This document shows, one piece after another, positions 3,774 through 59,068 of a DNA stretch of 64,000 bases. The DNA comes from a virus. The stretch lies in the UHGV virus genome UHGV-1366123. One strand, written 5' to 3'. Each line of letters begins with the position of its first letter. Position 1 is the stretch's first letter. The position numbers and the translations under genes were made by a program. The notes under the pieces were generated by a model. The model saw nothing but the letters and a program-made list of their open reading frames with translations. It made no database searches and was not told the DNA's origin.

Positions 3774-3856
3774 GAGTGTATTTCCATTGCGCTCTTTTCT
3801 TTCAAGATTATGAAAACACGATGGAACATCTTCGAGCGCAAGGAAAGTACCTCTCT
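3774..3856. repeat. promoter-stem-loop cassette (PeSL-like): arms GTATTTCCATTGCGCTC / GAGCGCAAGGAAAGTAC flank a TTGCGC-N16-TATGAA promoter-like core
   Basis: Imperfect 17-bp inverted arms. Consensus arm GAGAGGTAYTTTCCTTGCGCTC recurs at 3.9, 9.7, 10.2, 20.4, 28.1, 47.1 and 54.9 kb. Confidence 0.5.
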
Positions 3857-3876
3857 TTGATTTAAGCTTTCGAACA

Positions 3877-3957
3877 CACTTCCCTTGCATTCGAAACTAT
3901 TCAAGAATATGAAAATAGCGGAAAATGGGTCAGAGTTCAAGGAAAGTACCTCTCTCG
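3877..3957. repeat. second PeSL-like cassette: TTGCAT-N18-TATGAAAATAGCGGAAA core followed by a CAAGGAAAGTACCTCTCTC arm
   Basis: Shares the 25-bp core TTCAAGAATATGAAAATAGCGGAAA with the 9.76 and 10.19 kb copies. Confidence 0.5.
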
Positions 3958-4051
3958 AATTAGAAGGCGTATGTTTATAAACGGAAAGGTGGCTACCAGA
4001 GAGATCATCTCCGATAGCCACCACCTTCTCTTCTTTTTACGATTTTCTTTT

Positions 4052-7753: not shown

Positions 7754-8458
7754 TTATTTTCTCTTTCTGAAAGATATCTTCTTGTCGAACCCATGACCGA
7801 CGATCTTCTGTTCATCGGTCATCTTCACTTCAACACCGTCTTTGATTTTCGAGGAGAGGAAGTTTTGGATCTTGATGAACATCTCCTCTGGAGGAACAAT
7901 CCCACCGAAGTTGATGCACTTCAAGAGTGGATTTTTACAAGTGAAGTAACTTTCAAATCCAAATCTGGCCACCTTCGGGACTATCTCGGACGCTGATATT
8001 TCGAACAGACATCTGAACATGTCGTCGTAGTCTATACGCTCATTTCCAAAACCGTATTTTCTACCGTGAGTGATCATATAAGACATGAACATAGAGAAAA
8101 CGGTATGGGCGTTGTCAATGTTCAGTAAGAACGAGACACTGTCAGAGAGTTTCTCCTTTTCATCGATCTCCTTTGTGCAGATGAGAGAAAGAGAACGTAT
8201 GTCCTTGTGATAGAAACTCAATCTTTGGAAAGGGTGCTCCCCTCTTAAAGAATCTCTCTCGGGATCAACATCAACTCTGAGAAGATACCATGTTGTGGCA
8301 ACTTCTACAAGAAAATAGGCAAGATTATCATGACAAGAAAAACGAACATCTTCGTGCTGTAAATTGAAAGCGTGCCTATCAAACACGATCTTCCTATCTA
8401 CACCATAAACGCCTTGGATGTAGTCGTAGTAGTCTTTGTTCGTGTCAAGGATTAACAT
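7754..8458 (-). CDS. hypothetical protein
   Basis: 234-aa ORF. Its start overlaps the stop of the guanylate kinase gene (ATG 8458 / 8452), so the two are translationally coupled. Confidence 0.5.
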   Translation of the reverse strand: MLILDTNKDYYDYIQGVYGVDRKIVFDRHAFNLQHEDVRFSCHDNLAYFLVEVATTWYLLRVDVDPERDSLRGEHPFQRLSFYHKDIRSLSLICTKEIDEKEKLSDSVSFLLNIDNAHTVFSMFMSYMITHGRKYGFGNERIDYDDMFRCLFEISASEIVPKVARFGFESYFTCKNPLLKCINFGGIVPPEEMFIKIQNFLSSKIKDGVEVKMTDEQKIVGHGFDKKISFRKRK

Positions 8459-8985
8459 ACGTCGAAACTGTGAGCGTAGAATTTTTCGATTGTTGTTGCC
8501 GTATCGATCTTCACATGATCATAACCGAGATCTTTCATCTTCTGATCAAAGTTTTCAAAGAGCTTGTCGTCATTCTCATCTCTGGAAGTGGTATCTTGAG
8601 ATGTATCACGAATCTGTCTTCTTAGGATTGTGACTGTCTTTTCACAGACAAGTTCCGCAATTGTTATCTTTGAACGAAGATTTTGGGGGATATTCTCGAG
8701 ACCAGTTGGTGAAGTGATGAAGAAGTCACAATCTCTGAATTCTTGAAAAGTAGTTCCGTAATATTCTCCTTGGAATTCCATGAACTGGATGAACACACTA
8801 TTATTCACTAATCTCACGAATTCCTCCTTGGAAACAAAGTGATAATCTTTACCGTCTATTTCACCATCTCTTGGTTTTCTTGTAGTATGACCTATTGCTG
8901 GTTTGTATCCAAGAGTTGTAAAAACATCTAAGAAGTGATTCTTACCAACTGCAGATTTACCAACGAAAGCTATCTTCTTCATCAC
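8452..8985 (-). CDS. gmk: guanylate kinase
   Basis: P-loop GKSAVGK. HTTRKPRDGEIDGKDYHFVSKEEF matches the Gmk signature HTTRxPRxGEvdGxdYhFV. FQGEYYGTT matches the E. coli Gmk FGNYYGTS region. Confidence 0.8.
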   Translation of the reverse strand: MMKKIAFVGKSAVGKNHFLDVFTTLGYKPAIGHTTRKPRDGEIDGKDYHFVSKEEFVRLVNNSVFIQFMEFQGEYYGTTFQEFRDCDFFITSPTGLENIPQNLRSKITIAELVCEKTVTILRRQIRDTSQDTTSRDENDDKLFENFDQKMKDLGYDHVKIDTATTIEKFYAHSFDVC

Positions 8986-8995
8986 CAGTTGTTTG

Positions 8996-9661
8996 TTAGA
9001 AGTTTAAGAACCAGTGAATTGATCTTGCAGAATCGATCAGACCATCCAGATTTCTTACTGATTCTTCTGATTTTTCAATGACTTTCTCGTTTGGCATCTT
9101 ATATTCCAAAGATGGGTAAGGATTTTTATAGAAGACAGAAGGATTGAAGAATGTGTAAAGAAGAATCTCTTCACGGATCATCTTGTAAACGTTCATTATT
9201 TCCTCTGGAGATTTTGAAGAGAGATCGTGAACAACAGTTATGTCTCGCATATCAAGAATCTTCATCTTGTTCCGTGTCTTTATAGAAAACTGCTTATAGA
9301 ACACTGGATCGGATTCCACAATGTAATAGTCTTCACAAAAGAGACCGTCACGAATAAACGGAATCGTTTCCTCGTGATTCTCAGTTTTAATACCTTCGTC
9401 GTTGATTATCATATCTTGATATGAAACCACCAAATCACCCCTTCGAGAGTATAAGTCAAGATCGATATTTTCAATCCTTGCTTGTCTACCTTCGATGATT
9501 ATGAAGATATCGTGGTTCAAGACCATATTTCTGAATTGTTCTAATGATTTCATTGTCTTCTTTGTATTCTTATGGAAATCCGACGAATCTACTTCATACG
9601 TCTTATAATGAGCAGAAAGTTGTTGTTTTTGTTCAGAAGATCGGTGGAAATGGGAAGACAA
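8996..9661 (-). CDS. hypothetical protein
   Basis: 221-aa ORF, the first gene of the leftward three-gene minus-strand block. Confidence 0.5.
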   Translation of the reverse strand: MSSHFHRSSEQKQQLSAHYKTYEVDSSDFHKNTKKTMKSLEQFRNMVLNHDIFIIIEGRQARIENIDLDLYSRRGDLVVSYQDMIINDEGIKTENHEETIPFIRDGLFCEDYYIVESDPVFYKQFSIKTRNKMKILDMRDITVVHDLSSKSPEEIMNVYKMIREEILLYTFFNPSVFYKNPYPSLEYKMPNEKVIEKSEESVRNLDGLIDSARSIHWFLNF

Positions 9662-9723
9662 TGACTAACAGTGAAGACAATCGACCATAATGAAAAACAA
9701 TGACTAAAAATGGTCGAATTAAA

Positions 9724-9807
9724 GGAAGGTACTTTCCTTGTCCTCGAAGTGACTCAAGAATATGAAAATAGCGGAAACTATACTCAAGCTCAAGGAAAGT
9801 ACCTTCC
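9724..9807. repeat. PeSL-like cassette with perfect 17-bp arms GGAAGGTACTTTCCTTG / CAAGGAAAGTACCTTCC around a TTGTCC-N17-TATGAAAATAGCGGAAA core
   Basis: Read directly. The sigma70-like -35 (9738-9743) and -10 (9761-9766) boxes are embedded in the core. Confidence 0.55.
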
Positions 9808-10163
9808 TGTAATCAGAAGAGGTATTCTGTAAGACTATGGGCTATCGTCGGGAGACAATGGACTATTTCGAAGGATTATGAGAGGATAATCAAAGACTAT
9901 GGAAAGACAATGGCTGATTATTGAAAGACAATGGCTGATTATTGAAAGACTATCGATCATAATCAAAGACAATGAAGGATTGTCGTCTTTGTGTCTTCCT
10001 TGTCTTCAAACTTATCAAATGGGGTGAAAGTAGCTCCAAGTATCTTCAAGTTCAAGGAAAGTACCTTCTTGTAATCAGAAGAGTACTTTTGTCCAATGAT
10101 GGGTTGATAATGAAAGACAATGATGATTATCAAAGGACTATTGAAAGACTATCGACTGTTTTC

Positions 10164-10245
10164 TTGGTACTTTCCTTGTCCTCGAAGCTATTCAAGAATA
10201 TGAAAATAGCGGAAAGTGTATCAGAATGCAAGGAAAGTACCTTCC
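10164..10245. repeat. PeSL-like cassette (TTGGTACTTTCCTTG ... CAAGGAAAGTACCTTCC) around the same TATGAAAATAGCGGAAA core
   Basis: Near-identical to the 9724-9807 copy. Confidence 0.55.
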
Positions 10246-10956
10246 TGTAATCAGAAGAGTATTTTTGAACAATTATGGGTTATTGTCGGAAGACAGTAGA
10301 TTATTTCGAATGATTATCAAAGACTATGAAAAGACGATGACTATGAAAAGACAGTCAATCATAATCGAAAGACAATGGACGATTATTGATTAATCATTGA
10401 AGACTTTGAAGGATTGTGGAATGACTATGAAGACAATGGACGATTGTTGAAAAATTCTCAAAAGACTATGAAGGATCATTGAAAGACTATGACGATTGTT
10501 GAAAATTCTCAAAGACTATGAAAAATTCTCAAAGACTTGGATTCTTGGACTAATAGTCAGACTAATTCTTGGAGATTATTCGGCTCAGTTGTCGACAAAC
10601 TGCGTGCTTATTCGTGTGTATTCCCGTGTGTATTCCCGAGTGTATACTCGTATACGCATGCGGTATTTCAAATTATCTGGAAAAGTAAATGCGAAGCATT
10701 TACAACTGGTTTGGAGAACAAACTATGCACGCTAGTGCATAGGTTTCTTCCAAACCATACATTGAGCGCAGAAATATCTTTATTTCTCAGATTAAAAATC
10801 TCCAGTTTAAACGATTGGTACCGCCAGCGTGTTAGGTGACACGCACGTAAAACTGTAGGAATTCCTGCGCTCACGTATGAAACTTTAAAAAACGTACACG
10901 TAAAACTTTAAAAAGATCCAACAATTAACATTCTTTAACATAACCTATCACCTCTC

Positions 10957-12273
10957 TTGATTATAGGAATTGTGAATAGACATCATCCGACATCAACTTC
11001 ATCTACTCATCTACTCATCTACTCATCAACTGATCAATTAATCAGACAACTCTACAACGAATTCCAACAAATGATCCTTGAGATAGAACTTAACCACTCA
11101 TCCTTGAAGAAGGGACAGAATGTTACGGAAGAGGACATTCTTATGGAAATATCTCGACTTGAGAGAGAAGCAAGTTATCAGTCCACAATTAACAAAGTCT
11201 CGAAAGTTGCTCTCAATTCAATCTATGGTGTTCTTGGTTATCACTCATTTATCCTTTACGACAGAGAAATTGCAAGATCGGTTTCGGAGCAATCTTCTCA
11301 CGTGATCCGTTACACCATTCTCTTCTTCAATAGGTATTTCCAACAGAGATTCCCAAATCATAGGGAACTACACGCAAAGATGGGGATTACAAAGTGTGAT
11401 CCGATCGATTTCAATGCGGTGAACTATGCTGACACTGATTCCGTGTTTATCCGTTACAAGGACATCATGGACAAGACCGATTACAAGGGGACTCTCGAGG
11501 AATTCGTCTTTGATATCGGTTCGTATGATCTCAATGATTGTGTCAAAGATATGCTCGAAGGCTATATTCGAAAGTTCAACGGATTCCAACAGAAGATCGA
11601 TGGACAACGTTCAATGAAGCTTGCTTTTGAAATGATCTGTCATAATGTCTTGTGGACATCGAAGAAGAAGTACATCAAGAATATCTCTTGGGAAGAAGGT
11701 GTTTATTTCAAGCCACTTGAAAACGTAGAAGTTAAAGGTCTCGACATTAACAAGAGTTCAACGCCAAAGTTTGTTCGAGAACTTCTCCGTGAGACAGTCC
11801 ACTACATCTTGCAACATAGAGAACTCAACCTTCGAGATTTCATCGACCACGTCAAGATGCAAAAATCAAAGTTCGAAAGTGCAAACGTGGAAGACGTTGC
11901 AATCTCTCAGAGAGTTAATGGTTATGAGAAATATGTGATAACTGCAAAAGATGGTGTCTTCGAATACGTCAAAGGTGTAACAATTCAGATCAGAGCTTCG
12001 AGTGTTTATAACGCAGAACTTGCAAAATCGAAGTACAAGCACAAATATCAACAGATCAGATCGGGGATGAAGATTCAGTACTACTATTCAACAGATCCTC
12101 GTAGTGATGTTTTCGCATTTGTCAACGGTGATCCTTGCTATGAGTTCCTTTATCCAATCGATTATTCTAAGCAGTTCGAAATGCTTTATCTTTCACCACT
12201 TAACAAGATAATCACATCGATTGGTGTACAAGCACTGCCTGTTTCATTGATCGCTTTCGATCCACTTTGGTAA
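10957..12273 (+). CDS. family B DNA polymerase, C-terminal fragment (fingers/palm: motif B KxxxNSxYG and motif C YxDTDS)
   Basis: KVALNSIYGVLG (motif B) and NYADTDSVFI (motif C). The region aligns to T4 gp43 from about residue 540 onward. The true start may be the internal Met (MILEIELN...) because the 5' end contains a (CATCTACT)x3 tandem repeat. Confidence 0.85.
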   Translation: MIIGIVNRHHPTSTSSTHLLIYSSTDQLIRQLYNEFQQMILEIELNHSSLKKGQNVTEEDILMEISRLEREASYQSTINKVSKVALNSIYGVLGYHSFILYDREIARSVSEQSSHVIRYTILFFNRYFQQRFPNHRELHAKMGITKCDPIDFNAVNYADTDSVFIRYKDIMDKTDYKGTLEEFVFDIGSYDLNDCVKDMLEGYIRKFNGFQQKIDGQRSMKLAFEMICHNVLWTSKKKYIKNISWEEGVYFKPLENVEVKGLDINKSSTPKFVRELLRETVHYILQHRELNLRDFIDHVKMQKSKFESANVEDVAISQRVNGYEKYVITAKDGVFEYVKGVTIQIRASSVYNAELAKSKYKHKYQQIRSGMKIQYYYSTDPRSDVFAFVNGDPCYEFLYPIDYSKQFEMLYLSPLNKIITSIGVQALPVSLIAFDPLW

Positions 12274-12280
12274 AAGACAA

Positions 12281-13093
12281 ATGAGAACTTTAAACTTTGT
12301 CTATGGTTGTGATGTCTTTGGAAAGAAGGAAGGGACTTGCGGAGATCCATTTGACGATTCAATCATAGTTCCCACGGAAAAGTCATCTTGTCCATATTGC
12401 TACGTCCGTTACAAGATGTTCCCAGCCCGTGGTTATGCCGATCAGTTTTTCCTACAACCAAAGATAAACGTTCGACACCTCCGAGATTTCATAAGTCCAT
12501 CAGAGGTCTCTGAAATCTACATCGGTTCGATAATGGGTGACTTTTTAAGTCCATCGATCGAAGACAAGGACATAGCTCAAGTCTTTGACACTTTCGGAGA
12601 TTTCCCACAACACGTCTTCTTTCTCTTGTCGAAGAATGCTGGAAGGTACTACAAATTCCTCCGAGACTACTATCAGAAACCGCTCCCAGATAACGTCATA
12701 ATTGGAACATCTGTGGAAAATGATGGCTTTCGTCATAGAGTGGATCTTCTGCGAGCATCTTTGAAGATTTCTCCAAACACAAGACTTTGGTTGGAAATTG
12801 AACCTCTTCTTGGATTTCATACAAAGACTGATTTCTCGGGGATTGAGTATGTTTCATGTTCTGCGCTTGGTCAAGATCAAATCTACTACCAGAATGGGAA
12901 ACGATTTCCGTGGGTCTTCCGTGAAGAATGGATGCAATCGATAATCGATAACGATACACTTGATAAAGAGAATCTGTCGATTTATCACAATATCAAAAAT
13001 CTCTGCACGTCCCCGATAATAAGAGATTGGGAGAATCCGAACCTCTATGAAAGGTTCTTCCACAAATCTCAAAAAGAAGAAACACTATGGTAA
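12281..13093 (+). CDS. DUF5131 (phage Gp37/Gp68 family) protein
   Basis: CPYCY motif, IYIGSIMGDF, HVFFLLSK and NVIIGTSVENDGFRHRVDLL match the conserved blocks of the Gp37Gp68 family. Confidence 0.55.
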   Translation: MRTLNFVYGCDVFGKKEGTCGDPFDDSIIVPTEKSSCPYCYVRYKMFPARGYADQFFLQPKINVRHLRDFISPSEVSEIYIGSIMGDFLSPSIEDKDIAQVFDTFGDFPQHVFFLLSKNAGRYYKFLRDYYQKPLPDNVIIGTSVENDGFRHRVDLLRASLKISPNTRLWLEIEPLLGFHTKTDFSGIEYVSCSALGQDQIYYQNGKRFPWVFREEWMQSIIDNDTLDKENLSIYHNIKNLCTSPIIRDWENPNLYERFFHKSQKEETLW

Positions 13094-16213: not shown

Positions 16214-16339
16214 TTGCTATTCTTTATTTTAGTTTGTGCCCGAGACCTCACCTTCGATATAAGAAAGGTGAGGTCTTAACATATAAGAACAATAACAATC
16301 ATCAACAATAACAATCAAAGACAATAACAATCAAAGACA

Positions 16340-17125
16340 ATGCAAACTTATCTCGATTTGCTCAAGTACGTTCTTGAAAATGGAACAGAAAGAACTGACA
16401 GAACTGGAACTGGAACAATCTCCGTGTTTGGTCATCAAGTGGAATATGACGTAAGTGAAAAGTTCCCAATACTCACCACGAAGAGAATCCACATGAGAAG
16501 TGTCATTATGGAACTTGCTTGGATGCTCAAAGGTGATACCAACGTGAAGTTCTTAAGAGACAATGGTGTGACGATCTGGGATGAATGGGCAGATGAAAAC
16601 GGAGATCTCGGAAAGATCTACGGAAAGCAATGGAGAGATTTCGGAGGGATTGATCAAATCAAGGATATCATCGACCAAATCAAGAACAACCCAGATTCAC
16701 GAAGAATAATCGTCTCGGCTTGGAATCCTGCAGAACTCTCGGAAATGGCACTTCCTCCTTGTCATTGCTTCTTCCAGTTCTACGTCGAAGGTGACCGACT
16801 ATCCTTGAAGCTTTATCAAAGATCTGCTGATCTCTTCTTGGGTGTTCCATTTAACCTTGCACAATACTCACTCTTGCTTTACATTGTTGCAAAGATCTGT
16901 GGAAAGAAACCTCATCGTTTTATCCACTCGTTTGGAGATCTTCATATCTACAAGAATCACTTGGATCAAGTAAAGCTCCAACTATCGAGAAAACCATACG
17001 AACTCGCAGAGGTAAAAATCGTGGGAGATATCGACATTGATAATATCTCCGCAAATCTCATCGATCAAATCGAAATCAAGAACTACGTTCATCATCCCAC
17101 AATCAAGGCGGATGTGAGTGTTTAA
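16340..17125 (+). CDS. thyA: thymidylate synthase
   Basis: Near full-length collinearity with E. coli ThyA: DRTGTGT, FPxLTTKR, DTNxxx[33 protein letters not shown] and the catalytic [11 protein letters not shown]. Confidence 0.95.
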
Positions 17126-18155: not shown

Positions 18156-19214
18156 ATGAAGAAGAACAAGACCGAAATCGAAATGATCCTATTTGTCAAT
18201 GACAAAGGCAAGACAGTCAACGCCCAGAAGTTGTTATCTTCACCCTCCGAAAGTGATCTTCGAGACTATATCGGAAAGATTACAACTGGGAACATCATCG
18301 TCTTTGATGAGGACACGTGTTCTACACTTATCGCTCCATTACCAAACAGAATCTGTGTTGTAATTACCCAGAACAAGGACTTCAATCGTGAAGGGTTTGT
18401 TCGTGTAGAATCTATCCGAGATTTCATCGACATGCTCGGTACGAAGTTCGACAGATATCGTGATGTTTACGTAATGGTCGACAACATTCACATCGCAAGA
18501 AGCTTCATGGGTCATGTCGATAGAGTGAAGATGGTGGAAGTCAAAGGATCAAAGAACCACGACAGATACGAACTCTCTGATGTTCCTTACAAGACAATCA
18601 CTGATATTCGTCGATCTTCGAACGTTGTCGGTGAATACTCTCTCAATGATCTCGTAAAAATCATTGATTATGAGTTTAAAGACAACGTCTTCATGTGCAC
18701 AGCAAGTGTTGATGGCTTTGGATGTTGTGGTGTCTGTGCACGAGAACCAAGAATCCATGTCGACAGCTTTGGTGAAACTGTGAGAAGAAAGTCGGACTGT
18801 CGTGAATCCATAGTCCTTCACAAAGGTGATAGAGTTTTCATGAAGACTGATATCGAGATTTACAGAATTCCCAAGAACGTTTATGTCGATATCAAGACAA
18901 TCTTACATGGCTTTATCTGTAACGGAATCTCTGTGGAATCGTCGAGTATCGCTGACGGTGTCGTCTGTGTTGGACTGATAAACATGGGATCGAAGCCTGT
19001 CACCATTCACAAGGATCAAACAATTGCCATAATGGCGGTCAGAGGTGATCATGAGTTCTTGAAAGTAGAGCATAAAGACTTCCCACGTGAAAAAGTCGAT
19101 GGGTGGAATAACTTCGAACGTGAAGACGAAGATGAAAATCGTCGACCACTAAAGGATGAGTGTTGTGTGGGTAGTATAATGGAACGTTGTGAAGACAGCG
19201 ATTATGACTTTTAA
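18156..19214 (+). CDS. DHFR-like (degenerate, GG motif lost) N-domain fused to a dUTPase-like C-domain; paralog 2 of 3
   Basis: N-terminus collinear with the DHFR fold pattern (IIVFDEDT ... PLPNRICVVITQ). C-terminal ADGVVCVGLINMGSKPVTIHKDQTIAIM resembles the dUTPase GxIDxDYRGE ... kGdRIAQ blocks. Confidence 0.5.
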   Translation: MKKNKTEIEMILFVNDKGKTVNAQKLLSSPSESDLRDYIGKITTGNIIVFDEDTCSTLIAPLPNRICVVITQNKDFNREGFVRVESIRDFIDMLGTKFDRYRDVYVMVDNIHIARSFMGHVDRVKMVEVKGSKNHDRYELSDVPYKTITDIRRSSNVVGEYSLNDLVKIIDYEFKDNVFMCTASVDGFGCCGVCAREPRIHVDSFGETVRRKSDCRESIVLHKGDRVFMKTDIEIYRIPKNVYVDIKTILHGFICNGISVESSSIADGVVCVGLINMGSKPVTIHKDQTIAIMAVRGDHEFLKVEHKDFPREKVDGWNNFEREDEDENRRPLKDECCVGSIMERCEDSDYDF

Positions 19215-19227
19215 AGAATAATCGATT

Positions 19228-20097
19228 ATGCCAGTAAAGTTTATAGCTTGTACAGATAAGAACTTCGCTGTTGGAAACGATAGCAAACTTCTGTTCAGAA
19301 TTCGAGAAGATATGAAGCTGTTCCGTGAGCTGACGATGGGAAGCATTGTCGTCATGGGCAGGAAGACCTTCGAAGAGATCGGAAAGCCACTTGAAGGTAG
19401 AATAAACATTGTTCTATCAAGATCGGACATTTCTATTGGAGGTGTTCACGTTTTCCGATCGATGGAAGAATTGAAAGCTTTCTGCATGACATCTGAAAAT
19501 CGACAGAAAGATGTCTTTGTGATTGGTGGTGCAGAAATGTGGGAACTCTTTAGAAGATATGTTTCACAGATCCACCTCACGAAAGTCCCAGATGACTGTC
19601 CCGAATACGACACCGTCTTCCCTCATGATCTCTTGACGGCTTTCACACTCGTTCATAAGAATCAGATCGGCATCTATGAAAAGAACTATCAACCGATTGT
19701 CCATGAAGTCTATGACAGACAGAAGGATGTGACGGTTATGAACCGCAAGAATGATAAGCTCGTACCTTTGAGATTTGTCGATGTTCTTGAATATGTCGGT
19801 GATAAACCATCAACGATTCTTAAAGACGATTCAGTGAAGATACTTGCAAATGACAGAATCGCTGTAAAAACTGATCTTCGTGTTTATGAACTTCCTTTAG
19901 ACACGCTTGTCAGTGTGGATGTCGTTCCATCAGTTTTTATGGACAACGGACTGATGATTGCAGGTTGGGATATCTTTGATGATGACTTTATCGTTTACAT
20001 GACACTGATTGGAAAGAAGTCGATTTCACTGAAACGTGGTGATATCATAGCAGACGTTAATTTCTATTCTCGTCATCCTCTGATTTACGCCCCATAA
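19228..20097 (+). CDS. folA: dihydrofolate reductase with a C-terminal dUTPase-like beta-barrel extension; paralog 3 of 3
   Basis: IVVMGRKTFEEIGKPLEGRINIVLSRS and VFVIGGAEMWELF ... IHLTKV match the E. coli FolA blocks ([35 protein letters not shown]). About 130 extra C-terminal residues carry AGWDIFDDDF and KRGDIIADV. Confidence 0.8.
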   Translation: MPVKFIACTDKNFAVGNDSKLLFRIREDMKLFRELTMGSIVVMGRKTFEEIGKPLEGRINIVLSRSDISIGGVHVFRSMEELKAFCMTSENRQKDVFVIGGAEMWELFRRYVSQIHLTKVPDDCPEYDTVFPHDLLTAFTLVHKNQIGIYEKNYQPIVHEVYDRQKDVTVMNRKNDKLVPLRFVDVLEYVGDKPSTILKDDSVKILANDRIAVKTDLRVYELPLDTLVSVDVVPSVFMDNGLMIAGWDIFDDDFIVYMTLIGKKSISLKRGDIIADVNFYSRHPLIYAP

Positions 20098-20351: not shown

Positions 20352-20433
20352 TTGGTATTTCCCTTGATTTCTGAATCCATTGGAGGTGTGAAAGCCTTCA
20401 GAAATGGTTTCGAGGTCAAGGGAAATACGTCTC
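20352..20433. repeat. PeSL-like inverted repeat (GGTATTTCCCTTGA ... TCAAGGGAAATACG) in the 240-bp non-coding gap
   Basis: 14-bp arms flank about 50 bp. A variant of the dispersed arm consensus. Confidence 0.45.
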
Positions 20434-25774: not shown

Positions 25775-27205
25775 ATGAAAGCCAAGAAGCATCACGTGGG
25801 CATGTTTGACCACATGTTCCAAAAGGGAAAGATCACATTCTTGCTGGATGGTTACTCCGCAGGTTCATCTGGGAAGGGCAAATGTGAATCTCTGATCGTA
25901 AAGAACACGTCGTTTGGATCTAAAGACAGTGATAAGCGTCTTGCAGTCTGTACCACAAACTCTGCAAATGCGTCACATTGGGTTTATGATGACGGCAAGA
26001 AGATGATGTTCGAAGTCCTCCCTTCATCGGCTTACCTGTACGAAAAGCTCGAGTTCGTGGCTATCGGTCACGGTGCGTCGTTCTCCGTTGAACGTCTCTT
26101 CGAAGAAATCAAGATGAGCGGTCTTCCCCTCGATAAGCTCTTCATCCACCCCAAGGCAGGGATCATCACCAAGATCGACGAAGACTACGAAAAGGGTCTT
26201 TGTGATATCGACGGCAACTATTCGTCACAAGACCACGACGGCACAATTGCAGGTGGTTCAACTTGCTCTGGATCTGGTGCAGTTCGTGCAAAGAAGGTCG
26301 TTCGAAACAAGACGGTGACTTATGCTTACCAAGTCCCAGAACTCAAGCAGTTCATCTGTGATGTCGAAAAGCGTCTTATGACGTTTATGATCAATGGAGG
26401 ATCAGTCCTTCTGCAGATTGGTCAAGGTTTCCCACTTTCGTATGGTCTCGGCTATAACAAGCAGAACTCAACAAGTCGAAATGTGACAATCAGTGCAGCT
26501 TTGGATGATATGAATCTTCCTCCATTCTTCGCAGGTGACGTTATCTTGAATGGTAGAACTTATCCGATCAAGATCAACAACAAGAAGTATCGCCTTATTG
26601 GTGGGAAGCCAGTTGTCCGACTTCACAAGAACTCGGAATCGACGCTCAAGTACTACGCTCATAAGCATCTGTTCGACTTCATCGAAGGAGATGATCACGT
26701 TTCTATCGTCACACGTAAGGAATTCATCAACTTCTACGAAATGCGTGAGTTCCCCTACCTTGAATACGAAGTCATCGAATCGTTCAGTGGTACTGGTTAT
26801 TCTCCAATCTGGAACGAAGAAAGTCACCAGCGAGAAATCACGTGGGAAGATGTCGAAAAGAACTATGGGAAGACAATCCCAGATGATGTAAAATGCACGT
26901 CACTTACCAAGCTCCCCCGAAGAGTCTTTGAGTTCGATAAGAGCCTTCTGCACGACGGTATTCTCTACAATCTCTCTCCAAATGGCAAAACTCATATTGT
27001 CATCAACTTCGTCAACTGGGTAGATGGTGAAATGGACGGAGAACGTGAGAAGATCACCGAAAAGGTCGAAGATTGGCTCTCCAAGAACATGTTCGGCGAA
27101 ATCGACACTATCAACAAGCTCGTAGGTGGTAATGATGAAAAGGTCGTGCTTTCTGTACTCGGGACTGGTCGTGAATCCGACGACTTTGTCGCTGTAGAAC
27201 AGTAA
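25775..27205 (+). CDS. purZ: adenylosuccinate synthetase homolog with a non-canonical P-loop; candidate PurZ (N6-succino-2-amino-2'-deoxyadenylate synthase)
   Basis: PurA fold blocks are present (GYSAGSSGKGK P-loop, TNSANASHW, GGSTCSGSG), but the canonical GDEGKGK, with its catalytic Asp, is GSSGKGK here. A PurA homolog in a phage alongside purB and mazG matches the Z-base cluster. Confidence 0.7.
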   Translation: MKAKKHHVGMFDHMFQKGKITFLLDGYSAGSSGKGKCESLIVKNTSFGSKDSDKRLAVCTTNSANASHWVYDDGKKMMFEVLPSSAYLYEKLEFVAIGHGASFSVERLFEEIKMSGLPLDKLFIHPKAGIITKIDEDYEKGLCDIDGNYSSQDHDGTIAGGSTCSGSGAVRAKKVVRNKTVTYAYQVPELKQFICDVEKRLMTFMINGGSVLLQIGQGFPLSYGLGYNKQNSTSRNVTISAALDDMNLPPFFAGDVILNGRTYPIKINNKKYRLIGGKPVVRLHKNSESTLKYYAHKHLFDFIEGDDHVSIVTRKEFINFYEMREFPYLEYEVIESFSGTGYSPIWNEESHQREITWEDVEKNYGKTIPDDVKCTSLTKLPRRVFEFDKSLLHDGILYNLSPNGKTHIVINFVNWVDGEMDGEREKITEKVEDWLSKNMFGEIDTINKLVGGNDEKVVLSVLGTGRESDDFVAVEQ

Positions 27206-57766: not shown

Positions 57767-58207
57767 ATGGGATTTTTAAAGGCATTGAAGGATTTCGTGA
57801 ACAAGAGAGGTGTTGTGAACACGAAAAGATCGTATGTTCACACAGATGATCTTCGTCTCAATCCTTCTTCTGAGCACCAAATATCAGAGGTCACAAAGTA
57901 TGACATTGTACCTCATAACATGGTCGTGATAGCCACTCATGGAACTGGCTACTTTGTACGTAGTGAAGATTGTCACACATACAAGGAAACAAACACGACG
58001 TGCTATGACTTCATACTTGAGAATCAATATGATGGATCGTTTGTGGATATCGTCATAAACTACGAAAGTGATGGAAATGGAGAAGGGAAGATCTGTAACA
58101 TTTCCATGGCGTACGAATATGAAAACGACTCATCAATCGAAAACGTATCGAAAGATGAAGCGATAAAGTTTATGGCTTCATTCCTACAAAGAACTCTGCT
58201 ATTATGA
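57767..58207 (+). CDS. hypothetical protein
   Basis: 146-aa ORF. Confidence 0.4.
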   Translation: MGFLKALKDFVNKRGVVNTKRSYVHTDDLRLNPSSEHQISEVTKYDIVPHNMVVIATHGTGYFVRSEDCHTYKETNTTCYDFILENQYDGSFVDIVINYESDGNGEGKICNISMAYEYENDSSIENVSKDEAIKFMASFLQRTLLL

Positions 58208-58299
58208 CAGAGTATGACACGAACGGATATGACAGACATATGACAAAGATGACAGACGTATGACAAAGATGACAGACGTATGACAATTTTGTCATGACA
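58204..58299. repeat. nine phased copies of ATGACA (period 9-11 bp), including 20-bp unit GATGACAGACGTATGACAAA x2, ending in palindrome TTGTCATGACAA
   Basis: Read directly. ATGACA starts at 58204, 58214, 58229, 58240, 58249, 58260, 58269, 58280 and 58294. Confidence 0.55.
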
Positions 58300-58387
58300 A
58301 CGATAATTTGGCACGATTTTTGTTATAATTATTATGAAAGATCGATCACTCGGATCAATCAACTTCAACCCAACATAAACAACAACA

Positions 58388-59068
58388 ATGACTATGACAA
58401 CAACGGCAACCATACAAGACAAACTCGACAAGAACGTAGAGTTTGTTTGTTCATTGTACAAGGCACGATTCGAAAAGTCGAAGGCTGTACAAGACGAATC
58501 GTTATACCACGTAACGTACACGATCACCTGTGAAGATTCCCACACTATCATCTTCCACGCAAACCTCTTTCCGAAAATGTTCGGGATGGTCATCAATGAT
58601 CTACTGAATAATAATGAATCTTCAATGATCGTGGAGACACTTGAAAACGAAGATGACTACGCAGAAAAAGTCGTGTCGACGCTTTCGGGTCTCATGTCTT
58701 ACAAGAAATCAGAAGATGAAGAGGATCATTCTTCTGCAGACATGTACGACCTCGTAGGTTTTGCGGTTGGTGCAACAAAGAACGCCACGTGGGAACACAA
58801 ATACGGAAAAGACGATATCAAGAAAACCTCATATGATCACTTCATCATCAATATCAACTATGAGGTGACAATGACTATCACACTTGAATATTGGGCAGAT
58901 GGTCGTCCGTACGTTTCCGAAGTCGATATCCTCACGTTCACCGTACGTACTCTCAGTGGGACTTATGAGAAGAAGACACTCAACACTACGATATCGGACG
59001 CTATGCTTGAATCTGTCGATTTCATCAATCTTGCCAACAGGTTCTCGGGTGGTAGAATGATAAAATAG
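58388..59068 (+). CDS. hypothetical protein
   Basis: 226-aa ORF followed by a strong terminator. Confidence 0.5.
   Translation: MTMTTTATIQDKLDKNVEFVCSLYKARFEKSKAVQDESLYHVTYTITCEDSHTIIFHANLFPKMFGMVINDLLNNNESSMIVETLENEDDYAEKVVSTLSGLMSYKKSEDEEDHSSADMYDLVGFAVGATKNATWEHKYGKDDIKKTSYDHFIININYEVTMTITLEYWADGRPYVSEVDILTFTVRTLSGTYEKKTLNTTISDAMLESVDFINLANRFSGGRMIK

Follow-up and report, generated by a model that had tools for sequence, protein, structure and literature searches.

A duplicated gene-free module of hairpin cassettes, phased repeats and a structured element in a T4-like phage: a candidate replication origin or early control region

The virus genome UHGV-1366123, of which a stretch of 64,000 nucleotides was analysed (the window), contains between two divergently oriented genes a gap of 1.5 kb (9554-11070) that is filled with short repeats and hairpins, and the question raised by this region, here called the hub, is what it is for. 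The hub is one of two diverged copies (~30%) of a polar, gene-free module, in which three units of cassette, flank and inverted repeat, phased arrays of direct repeats and a structured element of 330 nt have a fixed order and polarity. Judged by its genes, the source of the window is an uncultured T4-like myovirus, and about ten closely related T4-like phage genomes of ~150 kb keep both paralogous, inverted copies together with their repetitive architecture. A first-pass annotation had described a non-coding hub of 1.3 kb without a plausible open reading frame (ORF). The region is indeed gene-free, no ORF of at least 40 amino acids being conserved among six orthologous regions, but its extent had been drawn too narrowly; individual features had been placed within ~5 bases of their real positions. 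Overlooked were a third cassette, the 330-nt element as a unit and the second hub, and the latter two are needed for any explanation. Thus, the original observation is confirmed and extended, while its interpretation is partly supported.

The close relatives comprise six IMG/VR contigs of ~150 kb and several metagenome contigs, in which the genes flanking the hub are 88-94% identical at the nucleotide level. In three complete contigs the second hub is inverted and 67-68 kb away, which in terms of the window corresponds to a position ~78 kb along, pointing back, and therefore outside the window. It is composed of a terminator, three cassette-plus-array units, a spacer and the element, in this order, and beyond the element a pair of reversed cassettes and a strong terminator precede tRNA genes and a NADAR gene. 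Since the elements of the two hubs are ~70% identical compared to 86-96% among orthologues, the duplication must be old and both copies have been kept. Copies of the element at greater distance were sought with a 15-mer and two-anchor patterns in viral contigs and in a metagenome scan, which returned the same clade and chance matches only. As an aside, the region 3' of the second hub in IMGVR_UViG_3300045988_122716 (126,800-129,424) contains, besides two tRNA genes and the gene for the NADAR-domain protein, a gene of the TnpB/IS605 OrfB type (Cas12f-like TNB, RuvC), so that this T4-like phage carries a mobile RNA-guided nuclease.

The direct repeats are clearly non-random. The motif AAGACWATG occurs 19 times in the window compared with 2.18 ± 1.48 expected occurrences, a number reached in none of 100 shuffles. 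Thirteen copies reside on the plus strand within 9655-10520 and a fourteenth, on the minus strand (9551-9559), is the true start of the leftward gene. The logo of the repeat reads (G/c)(A/g)AAGAC(A/T)AT(G)(A/G), with ~8 informative positions and an optional ATG; the direct-repeat unit takes the forms AAGACAATGG and AAGACAATGGCTGATTATTGA, and the inverted-repeat site the form TGTCGGAAGACA. The "about 25" iterons counted earlier hold for the relaxed core (22 AGAC on the plus and 4 GTCT on the minus strand, with 3.9 expected) but not for the full motif. In eight hub copies nearly all spacings amount to 10/11, 19-21, 29-32 or 41 bp and thus to multiples of ~10.5 bp, by which measure the repeats, all in the same orientation, are helically phased and are predicted to face one side of the helix. 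A cluster of evenly spaced direct repeats of one orientation, as is characteristic of iteron origins, is therefore present, and in each genome such motif clusters are confined to the two hubs.

Four arrays can be distinguished, all on the plus strand. The leading array (9655-9717) contains AAGACAATG, AAGACAATC and AAAACAATG and ends with AAAAATGGTCGAATTAA directly 5' of the first cassette; a lead-in of this type precedes the cassettes in both hubs of the relatives. Array A (9831-9975) includes the inverted-repeat site CGTCGGGAGACA (9846-9857) and the previously reported 21-bp tandem units AAAGACAATGGCTGATTATTGA, which were recovered at 9898-9950 as 2.5 copies with 96% matches. Array B (10093-10159) is made up of AAGACAATG, AGGACTATT and AAGACTATC, while array C (10269-10540) starts with ATTATGGGTTATTGTCGGAAGACAGT and contains an inverted-repeat site (10284-10295) followed by ~12 AAGAC units spaced by 11, 17, 21 or 30-32 bp. 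Between flanking genes of 88-94% identity the arrays evolve faster than any other part of the hub: their identity is 70-84%, indels are numerous and the number of copies varies from 11 to 23. Despite this turnover, motif, phase and polarity are maintained. Comparison of the predicted RNA folds with those of shuffled sequences gave z-scores of -1.3 for array A and -0.9 to -0.4 for array C, which are not significant. Overall the values ranged from -2.2 to +0.5 (-1.3 to +0.5 on the plus strand), -2.2 being reached only on the minus strand of 10269-10410, and RNA structure in the arrays is neither clearly favoured nor clearly avoided by selection. Their purine richness, taken as a proxy for R-loop formation, is unexceptional (0.60 versus a window mean of 0.54 ± 0.05).

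Two related repeat arrangements occur elsewhere. The leader of thyA (16288-16341) consists of 3.4 copies of a 16-nt unit, AACAATAACAATCAAA(GAC), with two AAGACAAT motifs, a doubling of the hub repeat that has no counterpart elsewhere outside the hub; the start context of thyA, as the first-pass annotation had it, is CAAAGACAATG (16334-16342). A second phased array at 58200-58300, 5' of a gene at 58388, comprises ~10 TATGACA units at 10-bp spacing and ends in the palindrome TTGTCATGACAA. Read on the other strand it presents TGTCAT every 10 bp and is Pho-box-like, and in relatives it is found 3' of a hairpin cassette.

The hairpin cassettes and the arrays together form three tandem units of 174 nt, starting at 9728, 9990 and 10166. 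Two of these cassettes had been recognized before, correctly as to their presence; their number is three, the middle one having a decayed left arm. All are on the plus strand. Cassette 1 (9718-9813) has the arms ATTAAAGGAAGGTACTTTCCTTG and CAAGGAAAGTACCTTCCTGTAAT and the loop box CTCAAGAATATGAAAATAGCGGAAA; its inverted repeat (I2, 30 nt, 87% complementary) folds with z = -6.1 on the plus and -8.0 on the minus strand, and it is followed by the promoter-like flank TGTAATCAGAAGAG-GTATTCTGT (9808-9830). Cassette 2 (9976-10092), a decayed copy of the 174-nt unit with 63% identity to the first, retains the right arm CAAGGAAAGTACCTTC (10053-10068) and the flank TGTAATCAGAAGAG-TACTTTTG. In cassette 3 (10160-10268) the arms (10166-10178 and 10229-10244) enclose the loop box TTCAAGAATATGAAAATAGCGGAAA (10191-10215), and the flank is TGTAATCAGAAGAG-TATTTTTG.

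These cassettes belong to a larger family, in which the arm GGAAGGTACTTTCCTTG is separated by ~50 bp from the arm CAAGGAAAGTACCTTCC and a conserved box, TTCAAGAATATGAAAATAGCGGAAA in the case of the hub, lies between the two. The arm motif occurs 12 times in the window, where 0.23 occurrences are expected, and in relatives 49 stretches and, in a separate count, more than 100 distinct copies were found. Within the window the family is represented at 3838, 3937, 9790, 10052, 10228, 20416, 28136 and 47107, often at gene ends including convergent ones. A conserved intergenic motif dispersed over a T4-type genome is what characterizes promoter-early stem-loop (PeSL) cassettes, reportedly the subject of work by Arbiol in 2010 and by Comeau in 2014. 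The hairpins reach -26 to -41 kcal/mol (z = -3.8 to -8.0) on either strand, and a clear U-tract is absent. When 46 cassettes were compared for folding energy and G-U count, strand preference was weak (p = 0.03) and G-U asymmetry was not seen. The arms are conserved in sequence and have no compensatory stem extensions, a possibility that was considered and dropped, and the inner boxes TCCTCGAAG and GCGCTCTGA behave as modular sequence blocks. Because of this conservation without compensatory change, the arms may be hairpins, protein sites or both.

What lies 3' of the cassettes is equally regular. A flank of the type AATCAGAAGAG-TAT(T/C)(C/T)T.. is conserved behind ~30 hub cassettes, and about 6 of the roughly 10 AATCAGAAGAG-type flanks per genome fall in hubs. 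Two of the three flanks in the window (TACTTTTG and TATTTTTG) match TAnnTTTG exactly, which we take to be the -7 box of Bacteroidota and which the hub flanks resemble. Some 22 nt further downstream follows ATGGGTTTC-TGTCGGAAGACAAT, which contains the inverted repeat TGTC-GGAA-GACA built from the repeat core, and this site occurs at a fixed distance in ~25 cassettes of both hubs. Outside the hub, a convergent intergenic region (3838-4045) holds two cassettes, the second of which is succeeded by the box TATGTTTA, a hairpin GGTGGCTA..TAGCCACC and a T-run, all conserved in relatives; this downstream part could be a ~55-nt small RNA or a bidirectional terminator.

The third component is a conserved hub-specific element on the plus strand (10600-10945), as delimited by an alignment of 12 copies from the two paralogous loci. 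It starts with the 12-bp repeat CGTGTGTATTCC in 2.8 copies (10613-10645) and GTATAC palindromes (up to 10665), just where direct repeats had been annotated (10610-10665). Then follow hairpins H1 (10685-10703) and H2 (10707-10757), the block CCAAACCATACATTGAGCGCAG (10750-10771), hairpin H3 (10770-10787), the box TCCAGTTTAAAC (10801-10812), a fourth hairpin GCGTGT..ACACGC (10827-10844), three CACGTA..AAACT(T/G)TA(AAAAA) units (10844-10915) and two copies of TTAACAT (10925-10941). The repeats formerly seen at 10840-10915 are found again in the form of CACGTAAAACT at 10844 and 10897. In all, the element carries three further repeat families specific to the hub. The blocks ACAACTGGTTTGG, CCAAACCATACATTGAGCGCAG and TCCAGTTTAAAC are invariant, and at the 3' end of the element there are 2-4 A-rich CGyAyGT-AAAACTTTAAAAAA units, whose AAACTTTAAAAA motif occurs nowhere else in the window.

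Identity of the element amounts to 86-96% between orthologues and ~70% to the paralogue. Between paralogues, two pairs of H1 have changed on both sides (A-U/U-A and G-C/A-U), and the inner stem of H2 and all of H3 have been replaced and still form hairpins. The element folds with z = -6.1 on the plus and -4.5 on the minus strand, and z-scores of -6 to -7 go with the hairpins. In every copy the plus strand is 2-8 kcal/mol more stable than the minus strand, which hints modestly at a plus-strand RNA, given that the copies depend on one another. In a search of both hubs against Rfam 15 (E ≤ 1 and gathering score) nothing reached the gathering score. Three candidate signals were discarded: a mir-942 match to cassette 1, the sole one returned, is due to chance (26.6 bits versus a gathering score of 100, E = 0.095), a BoxA-like TTCTTTAACA near 10930 is not conserved in orthologues, and a CS-6-like TAGCGT in the loop of H2 on the minus strand is not conserved in the paralogue.

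With respect to its neighbours, the hub is a point of divergent transcription and stands at the head of an operon for replication and nucleotide metabolism. Its left edge is the start codon (ATG, 9553-9551, in AAGACAATG context) of a leftward gene (8996-9553, minus strand) for a clade-specific ORFan protein of 185 amino acids, which is 90-94% identical at the nucleotide level in relatives and for which four homologues were found. An AlphaFold2 model of this protein, a candidate for binding the repeats, was uninformative on its fold (pLDDT 50). The right edge is the ATG at 11071 of the gene for the C-terminal fragment of a family-B DNA polymerase (11071-12273, plus strand; PF00136, phrog_262/1918; MaF61 polymerase in tblastn; 400-residue homologues), with which a block of co-oriented genes begins that extends over more than 50 kb. 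The leader of this gene (10946-11070, plus strand) is G-poor and rich in C, A and T, with 4.6 copies of TCATCTAC at 10991-11044, and other genes of the phage have similar G-poor leaders. The hub had been seen as separating a leftward block of three genes from the polymerase; the leftward block extends over just 1.8 kb, beyond which genes point rightward again.

The family-B polymerase itself is encoded by two separate genes, which lie 24 kb from each other and in the order opposite to that of the protein (C-terminal part 11071-12273, N-terminal part 35385-36881). The N-part spans the exonuclease to motif A (DYESLFPS) and the C-part starts before motif B, with no intein-like sequence evident at the junctions. 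Genes of ~400 codons for the C-fragment only recur in relatives at 77%, ~55-56%, 43% and 37% amino acid identity.

Affiliation with the T4-type phages is based on a portal protein (gp20, PF07230, 33-1244) and a gp32-like protein, both encoded in the window, which furthermore contains genes for thymidylate synthase, dihydrofolate reductase (DHFR), ribonucleotide reductase and a terminase fragment. Searches of GenBank phage DNA for near and distant matches yielded no DNA match; with the polymerase as query, the closest isolate was a Flavobacterium phage (33% amino acid identity). Gene starts lack Shine-Dalgarno sequences and leaders are A-rich and G-poor. Because of these starts and of the Flavobacterium phage polymerase as nearest match, the host is likely of the Bacteroidota type, to judge by sequence. 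As a host clue, the cassette arm produced 56 scattered single matches in 596 Gb of genomes, which is about the level of chance.

Several further features of the window deserve mention. The sequence TATAAAAAA occurs eight times (0.9 expected), mostly just 5' of structural-type genes (38648, 42984, 44271, 50840, 54372 and 54895 on the plus strand, 4048 and 41368 on the minus strand); this TATAAA-type late motif looks like the phage's equivalent of the T4 late promoter TATAAATA. Genes for a PurZ/PurA-like adenylosuccinate synthetase (PF00709, phrog_1211; 25775-27205), the adenylosuccinate lyase PurB (28199-29470), a MazG pyrophosphatase (31365-31835) and guanylate kinase (8452-8985) form a purine set reminiscent of phages in which 2-aminoadenine (Z) takes the place of adenine; if this were true here, "AT-rich" DNA would behave differently in this phage. 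The match to T4-type large terminase (PF03237) covers only the N-terminal ATPase domain of a 360-residue ORF (32745-33827), so that the terminase may be split or unusually organised, like the polymerase. Two adjacent genes (18156-19214 and 19228-20097) both match DHFR, the first one weakly (E = 7.5e-6), and may be a diverged tandem duplication.

How, then, can the hub be explained? We tentatively rank first that it is a promoter-driven, iteron-bearing replication origin or early control module similar to oriE and oriF of T4. The cassettes would be PeSL-like terminator/early-promoter units firing rightward. The phased repeats and their inverted-repeat variant would be candidate sites for one sequence-specific DNA-binding protein, which would oligomerise along the direct repeats and occupy the inverted repeat just 3' of each promoter as a dimer. 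The transcript would run through the arrays into the hairpin element, and the structured element with its A-rich repeats would be the place where the transcript or the opened DNA starts synthesis; the two hubs would be two such origins. Promoter-like flanks, same-face repeats, an operator-like inverted repeat and a hairpin-rich segment with A-rich units, situated at a divergence, heading a replication operon and present twice per genome, appear in combination closest to phage and plasmid origins. Among the roles put forward in the first-pass annotation, an iteron origin and a binding array for a regulator are still the best readings and are strengthened by the helical phasing, the inverted repeat after the promoter-like box, the retention in ~10 genomes and the paralogous second hub; a decoy array of minigenes is not supported.

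A number of results speak against such an origin or control module. No Rep-, O- or DnaA-like initiator or DNA-binding domain emerged from searches of the neighbours of either hub, which leaves room for an unrecognised protein. DnaA boxes (TTATCCACA, up to one mismatch) are absent from 9554-11070, the window total being 19 compared to 17.3 expected. Regarding DNA unwinding, the 3' end of the element, where the 2-4 AAACTTTAAAAA(A) units lie, is in the top 0.4% of the window in low duplex stability, but ~12 other places are even less stable, and a 2-aminoadenine genome, if present, would blunt the melting of A-rich tracts. GC and AT skew around both hubs follows gene orientation without any inflection beyond it. 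Upstream of the phage's genes, TAnnTTTG has no general association with gene starts, the full Bacteroidota consensus TTTG-N17-22-TAnnTTTG gave one irrelevant match, and a scan for sigma-70 promoters and terminators revealed no enrichment, so that a partial resemblance is what the assignment of the flanks as putative promoters builds on. The compensatory hairpins, slightly more stable on the plus strand, fit an RNA role without an origin. Finally, the relatives with 56% and 43% polymerase identity (GC ~30%) have no hub 5' of the polymerase C-fragment gene, and because of this absence the module must be either specific to a narrow clade or mobile.

Many of the same observations would suit a purely transcriptional early-control hub without an origin, which is possible though, in our estimate, rather unlikely. 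It would consist of three early promoters in tandem, with operator arrays on their flanks at which a phage or host regulator turns them off or on, the 330-nt element being a cis-acting leader RNA, for example for processive antitermination through downstream cassettes or for RNA stability, and the two copies would serve two early operons. The paired early-operon control regions OL-PL-nutL and OR-PR-nutR of lambda and putL and putR of HK022 are analogues of two such hubs. Everything in the hub shares the polarity of the promoter-like flanks, of which ~6 of ~10 of the AATCAGAAGAG type per genome are located in hubs, and the inverted-repeat site is found just 3' of each promoter-like box. In addition, the first hub heads the polymerase and nucleotide-metabolism block with its further cassettes at 20416, 28136 and 47107, the second hub faces tRNA genes and the NADAR gene, and the hairpins show compensatory change and slightly higher stability on the plus strand. 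Difficult to reconcile with such a hub is that in the second copy two reversed cassettes and a strong terminator separate the element from the next genes. In the relative with 77% polymerase identity, moreover, a cassette arm 125 nt 5' of the polymerase gene is where both contigs start, the assembly having broken within this repeat, and no element intervenes between cassette and gene. Four families of short repeats in one leader would be unusual for a leader RNA, and a regulator gene was not identified in the neighbourhoods of the hubs.

The hubs could also be genes for early non-coding RNAs, which we consider doubtful. In abundant transcripts, some 20-30 unstructured units resembling translation start sites, AAGACWAUG, would then, as RNA, sequester 30S/S1, a translational repressor, an RNase or an abortive-infection toxin in the manner of a sponge or decoy, and the 330-nt domain would be a new structured RNA. 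It is at a similarly low level of likelihood that an undescribed phage RNA combines 20-30 unstructured AAGACWAUG units with the structured domain (H1-H3 and invariant boxes), as a decoy for a translation, RNA-decay or defence factor in a host without Shine-Dalgarno sequences, or as a structured pre-primer similar to RNA II of ColE1. Real genes do start in the context of this motif (thyA at 16334, the leftward gene at 9551, a further one at 12281), the strand bias of the repeats is strict, and TGTC-GGAA-GACA could form a GNRA-capped 5' hairpin. Compensatory change in hairpins of the element and the favoured plus strand point in the same direction, and directly 3' of the second hub there is no protein gene; in T4, stable RNAs of unknown function adjoin the tRNA genes. 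On the other hand, ATG is present in only ~63% of the copies, the length of the mini-ORFs is unconstrained, the arrays do not differ from their shuffles in degree of structure and a register of 10.5 nt has no obvious meaning in RNA. There is neither a match to an Rfam family nor a terminator at the 3' end of the first hub. If an RNA were nonetheless made and used in this manner, it would add a new structured phage RNA and a repeat-RNA decoy.

Less probable still is largely functionless, hyperplastic DNA, a remnant without ORFs that would have arisen when PeSL-like cassettes recombined and a duplicated segment of leader plus start codon underwent slippage. The fast turnover by indels, the changes in copy number, the breaking of assemblies inside the hub and its absence 5' of the polymerase gene in distant relatives are all compatible with such a history, and so is the dispersal of the cassettes, as T4-type phages undergo shuffling through cassettes of this kind (PMC4122927). 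What weighs against it is that two copies, 30% diverged and with the same order of parts, are retained in every genome examined; furthermore, the element is as conserved as the neighbouring genes, its hairpins are kept by compensatory change, and motif, phase and polarity of the repeats survive the turnover.

Hardly tenable, finally, is an array of minigenes in the sense of lambda bar, in which four-codon ORFs titrate ribosomes or sequester tRNA via peptidyl-tRNA drop-off: some units do combine AUG, three codons and a stop in a good start context, the 21-bp units are readable as MADY*, MDDY* and MDDC* as had been claimed, and an ORF of 4-7 codons begins at 7 of the 14 ATGs that belong to motif copies in the window, but about a third of the repeats carry ATC, ATA, GTA or TTG instead of ATG, the ORFs have a median of 11 codons (range 3-92 in eight hub copies) and are not shorter than those in the +1 and +2 control frames, and the peptides are not conserved between orthologues. 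The conserved start followed by 1-3 sense codons and a stop that defines lambda bar-type minigenes is thus not a property of the hub repeats, in which neither ATG nor ORF length is conserved and evidence of selection on translation is lacking. The four-codon reading is best seen as a by-product of the 21-bp register that a subset of units has. The short ORF after each promoter-like flank (MGFCRKTM...) has a conserved start and varies in length from 3 to 35 residues.

Hardly any uncultured phage has a known origin or early control region, and this extends to the T4-like phages of hosts that lack Shine-Dalgarno sequences and are probably Bacteroidota. The module described here is compact, duplicated and available in natural variants (~10 genomes with two paralogues each and variable repeat number). 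The hairpin element, the promoter cassettes and the phased repeats, which include an operator-like inverted repeat, can be separated cleanly, so that the function of iterons in a T4-type phage becomes directly testable.

Among characterized systems, the replication origins of T4 provide the nearest phage precedent. They lie near points of transcriptional divergence; oriE combines an early promoter with evenly spaced 12-nt repeats (iterons), the role of which is unproven, while oriF and oriG consist of a promoter, a DNA unwinding element and an R-loop primer (PMC3016281). The hub resembles them in having evenly spaced short direct repeats beside promoter-like elements at a switch in transcription and in occupying more than one locus per genome, and its phage is tied to T4 by the gp20 portal, the gp32-like protein, the split family-B polymerase and the TATAAA-type late motif. 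Unlike T4 origins, with which it shares no sequence similarity, the hub has 20-30 copies of a repeat of 9-10 bp, in a 10.5/21-bp register, that are distributed over three blocks between cassettes, and it is attached to a 330-nt hairpin element. The two hubs are true paralogues, whereas T4 origins share no motif, and genes similar to repEA or repEB were not recognised nearby.

PeSLs are stem-loop cassettes with terminator and promoter that occur in T4-type phages and are tied to shuffling (PMC4122927). Like these, the hub cassettes are dispersed, conserved intergenic stem-loops between transcription units and at convergent gene ends, often with a promoter-like box behind them, and they are associated with indels, changes in copy number and assembly breaks. 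They differ in being much larger, with arms of 17 bp ~50 bp apart and conserved inner boxes, and their arms, without compensatory change, might just as well be protein sites. The putative promoters are not of the sigma-70 type, and three cassettes in tandem with repeat arrays in between are not described for PeSLs.

Iteron origins include P1 oriR/incA, F, pPS10, R6K gamma and lambda ori, and SPP1, with oriL and oriR, is a phage with two origins. The hub shares with this group the same orientation of its repeats on one predicted face of the helix, an inverted-repeat version at the promoter-like box as in Rep operators, a further repeat cluster at another genomic locus and an adjacent A-rich repeated segment. 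Differences are that no gene for a Rep- or O-type initiator adjoins or contains the hub repeats, that DnaA boxes are missing and that the repeat unit has half the usual iteron length; the origin activity of the hub is one that we infer. The parC locus of plasmid R1 has ten 11-bp repeats flanking the par promoter and bound by ParR. Similarly, the hub repeats of ~10-11 bp are phased and lie on both sides of a promoter-like element, which would suit a small DNA-binding protein that coats the DNA cooperatively and represses the promoter as well; the hub differs in the absence of genes of the parM/parR type, in its location in a lytic T4-like genome, in its far larger copy number and in the structured element attached to it. 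By type, the hub is a variant of PeSL cassettes combined with iteron- or origin-like control regions and not a new category.

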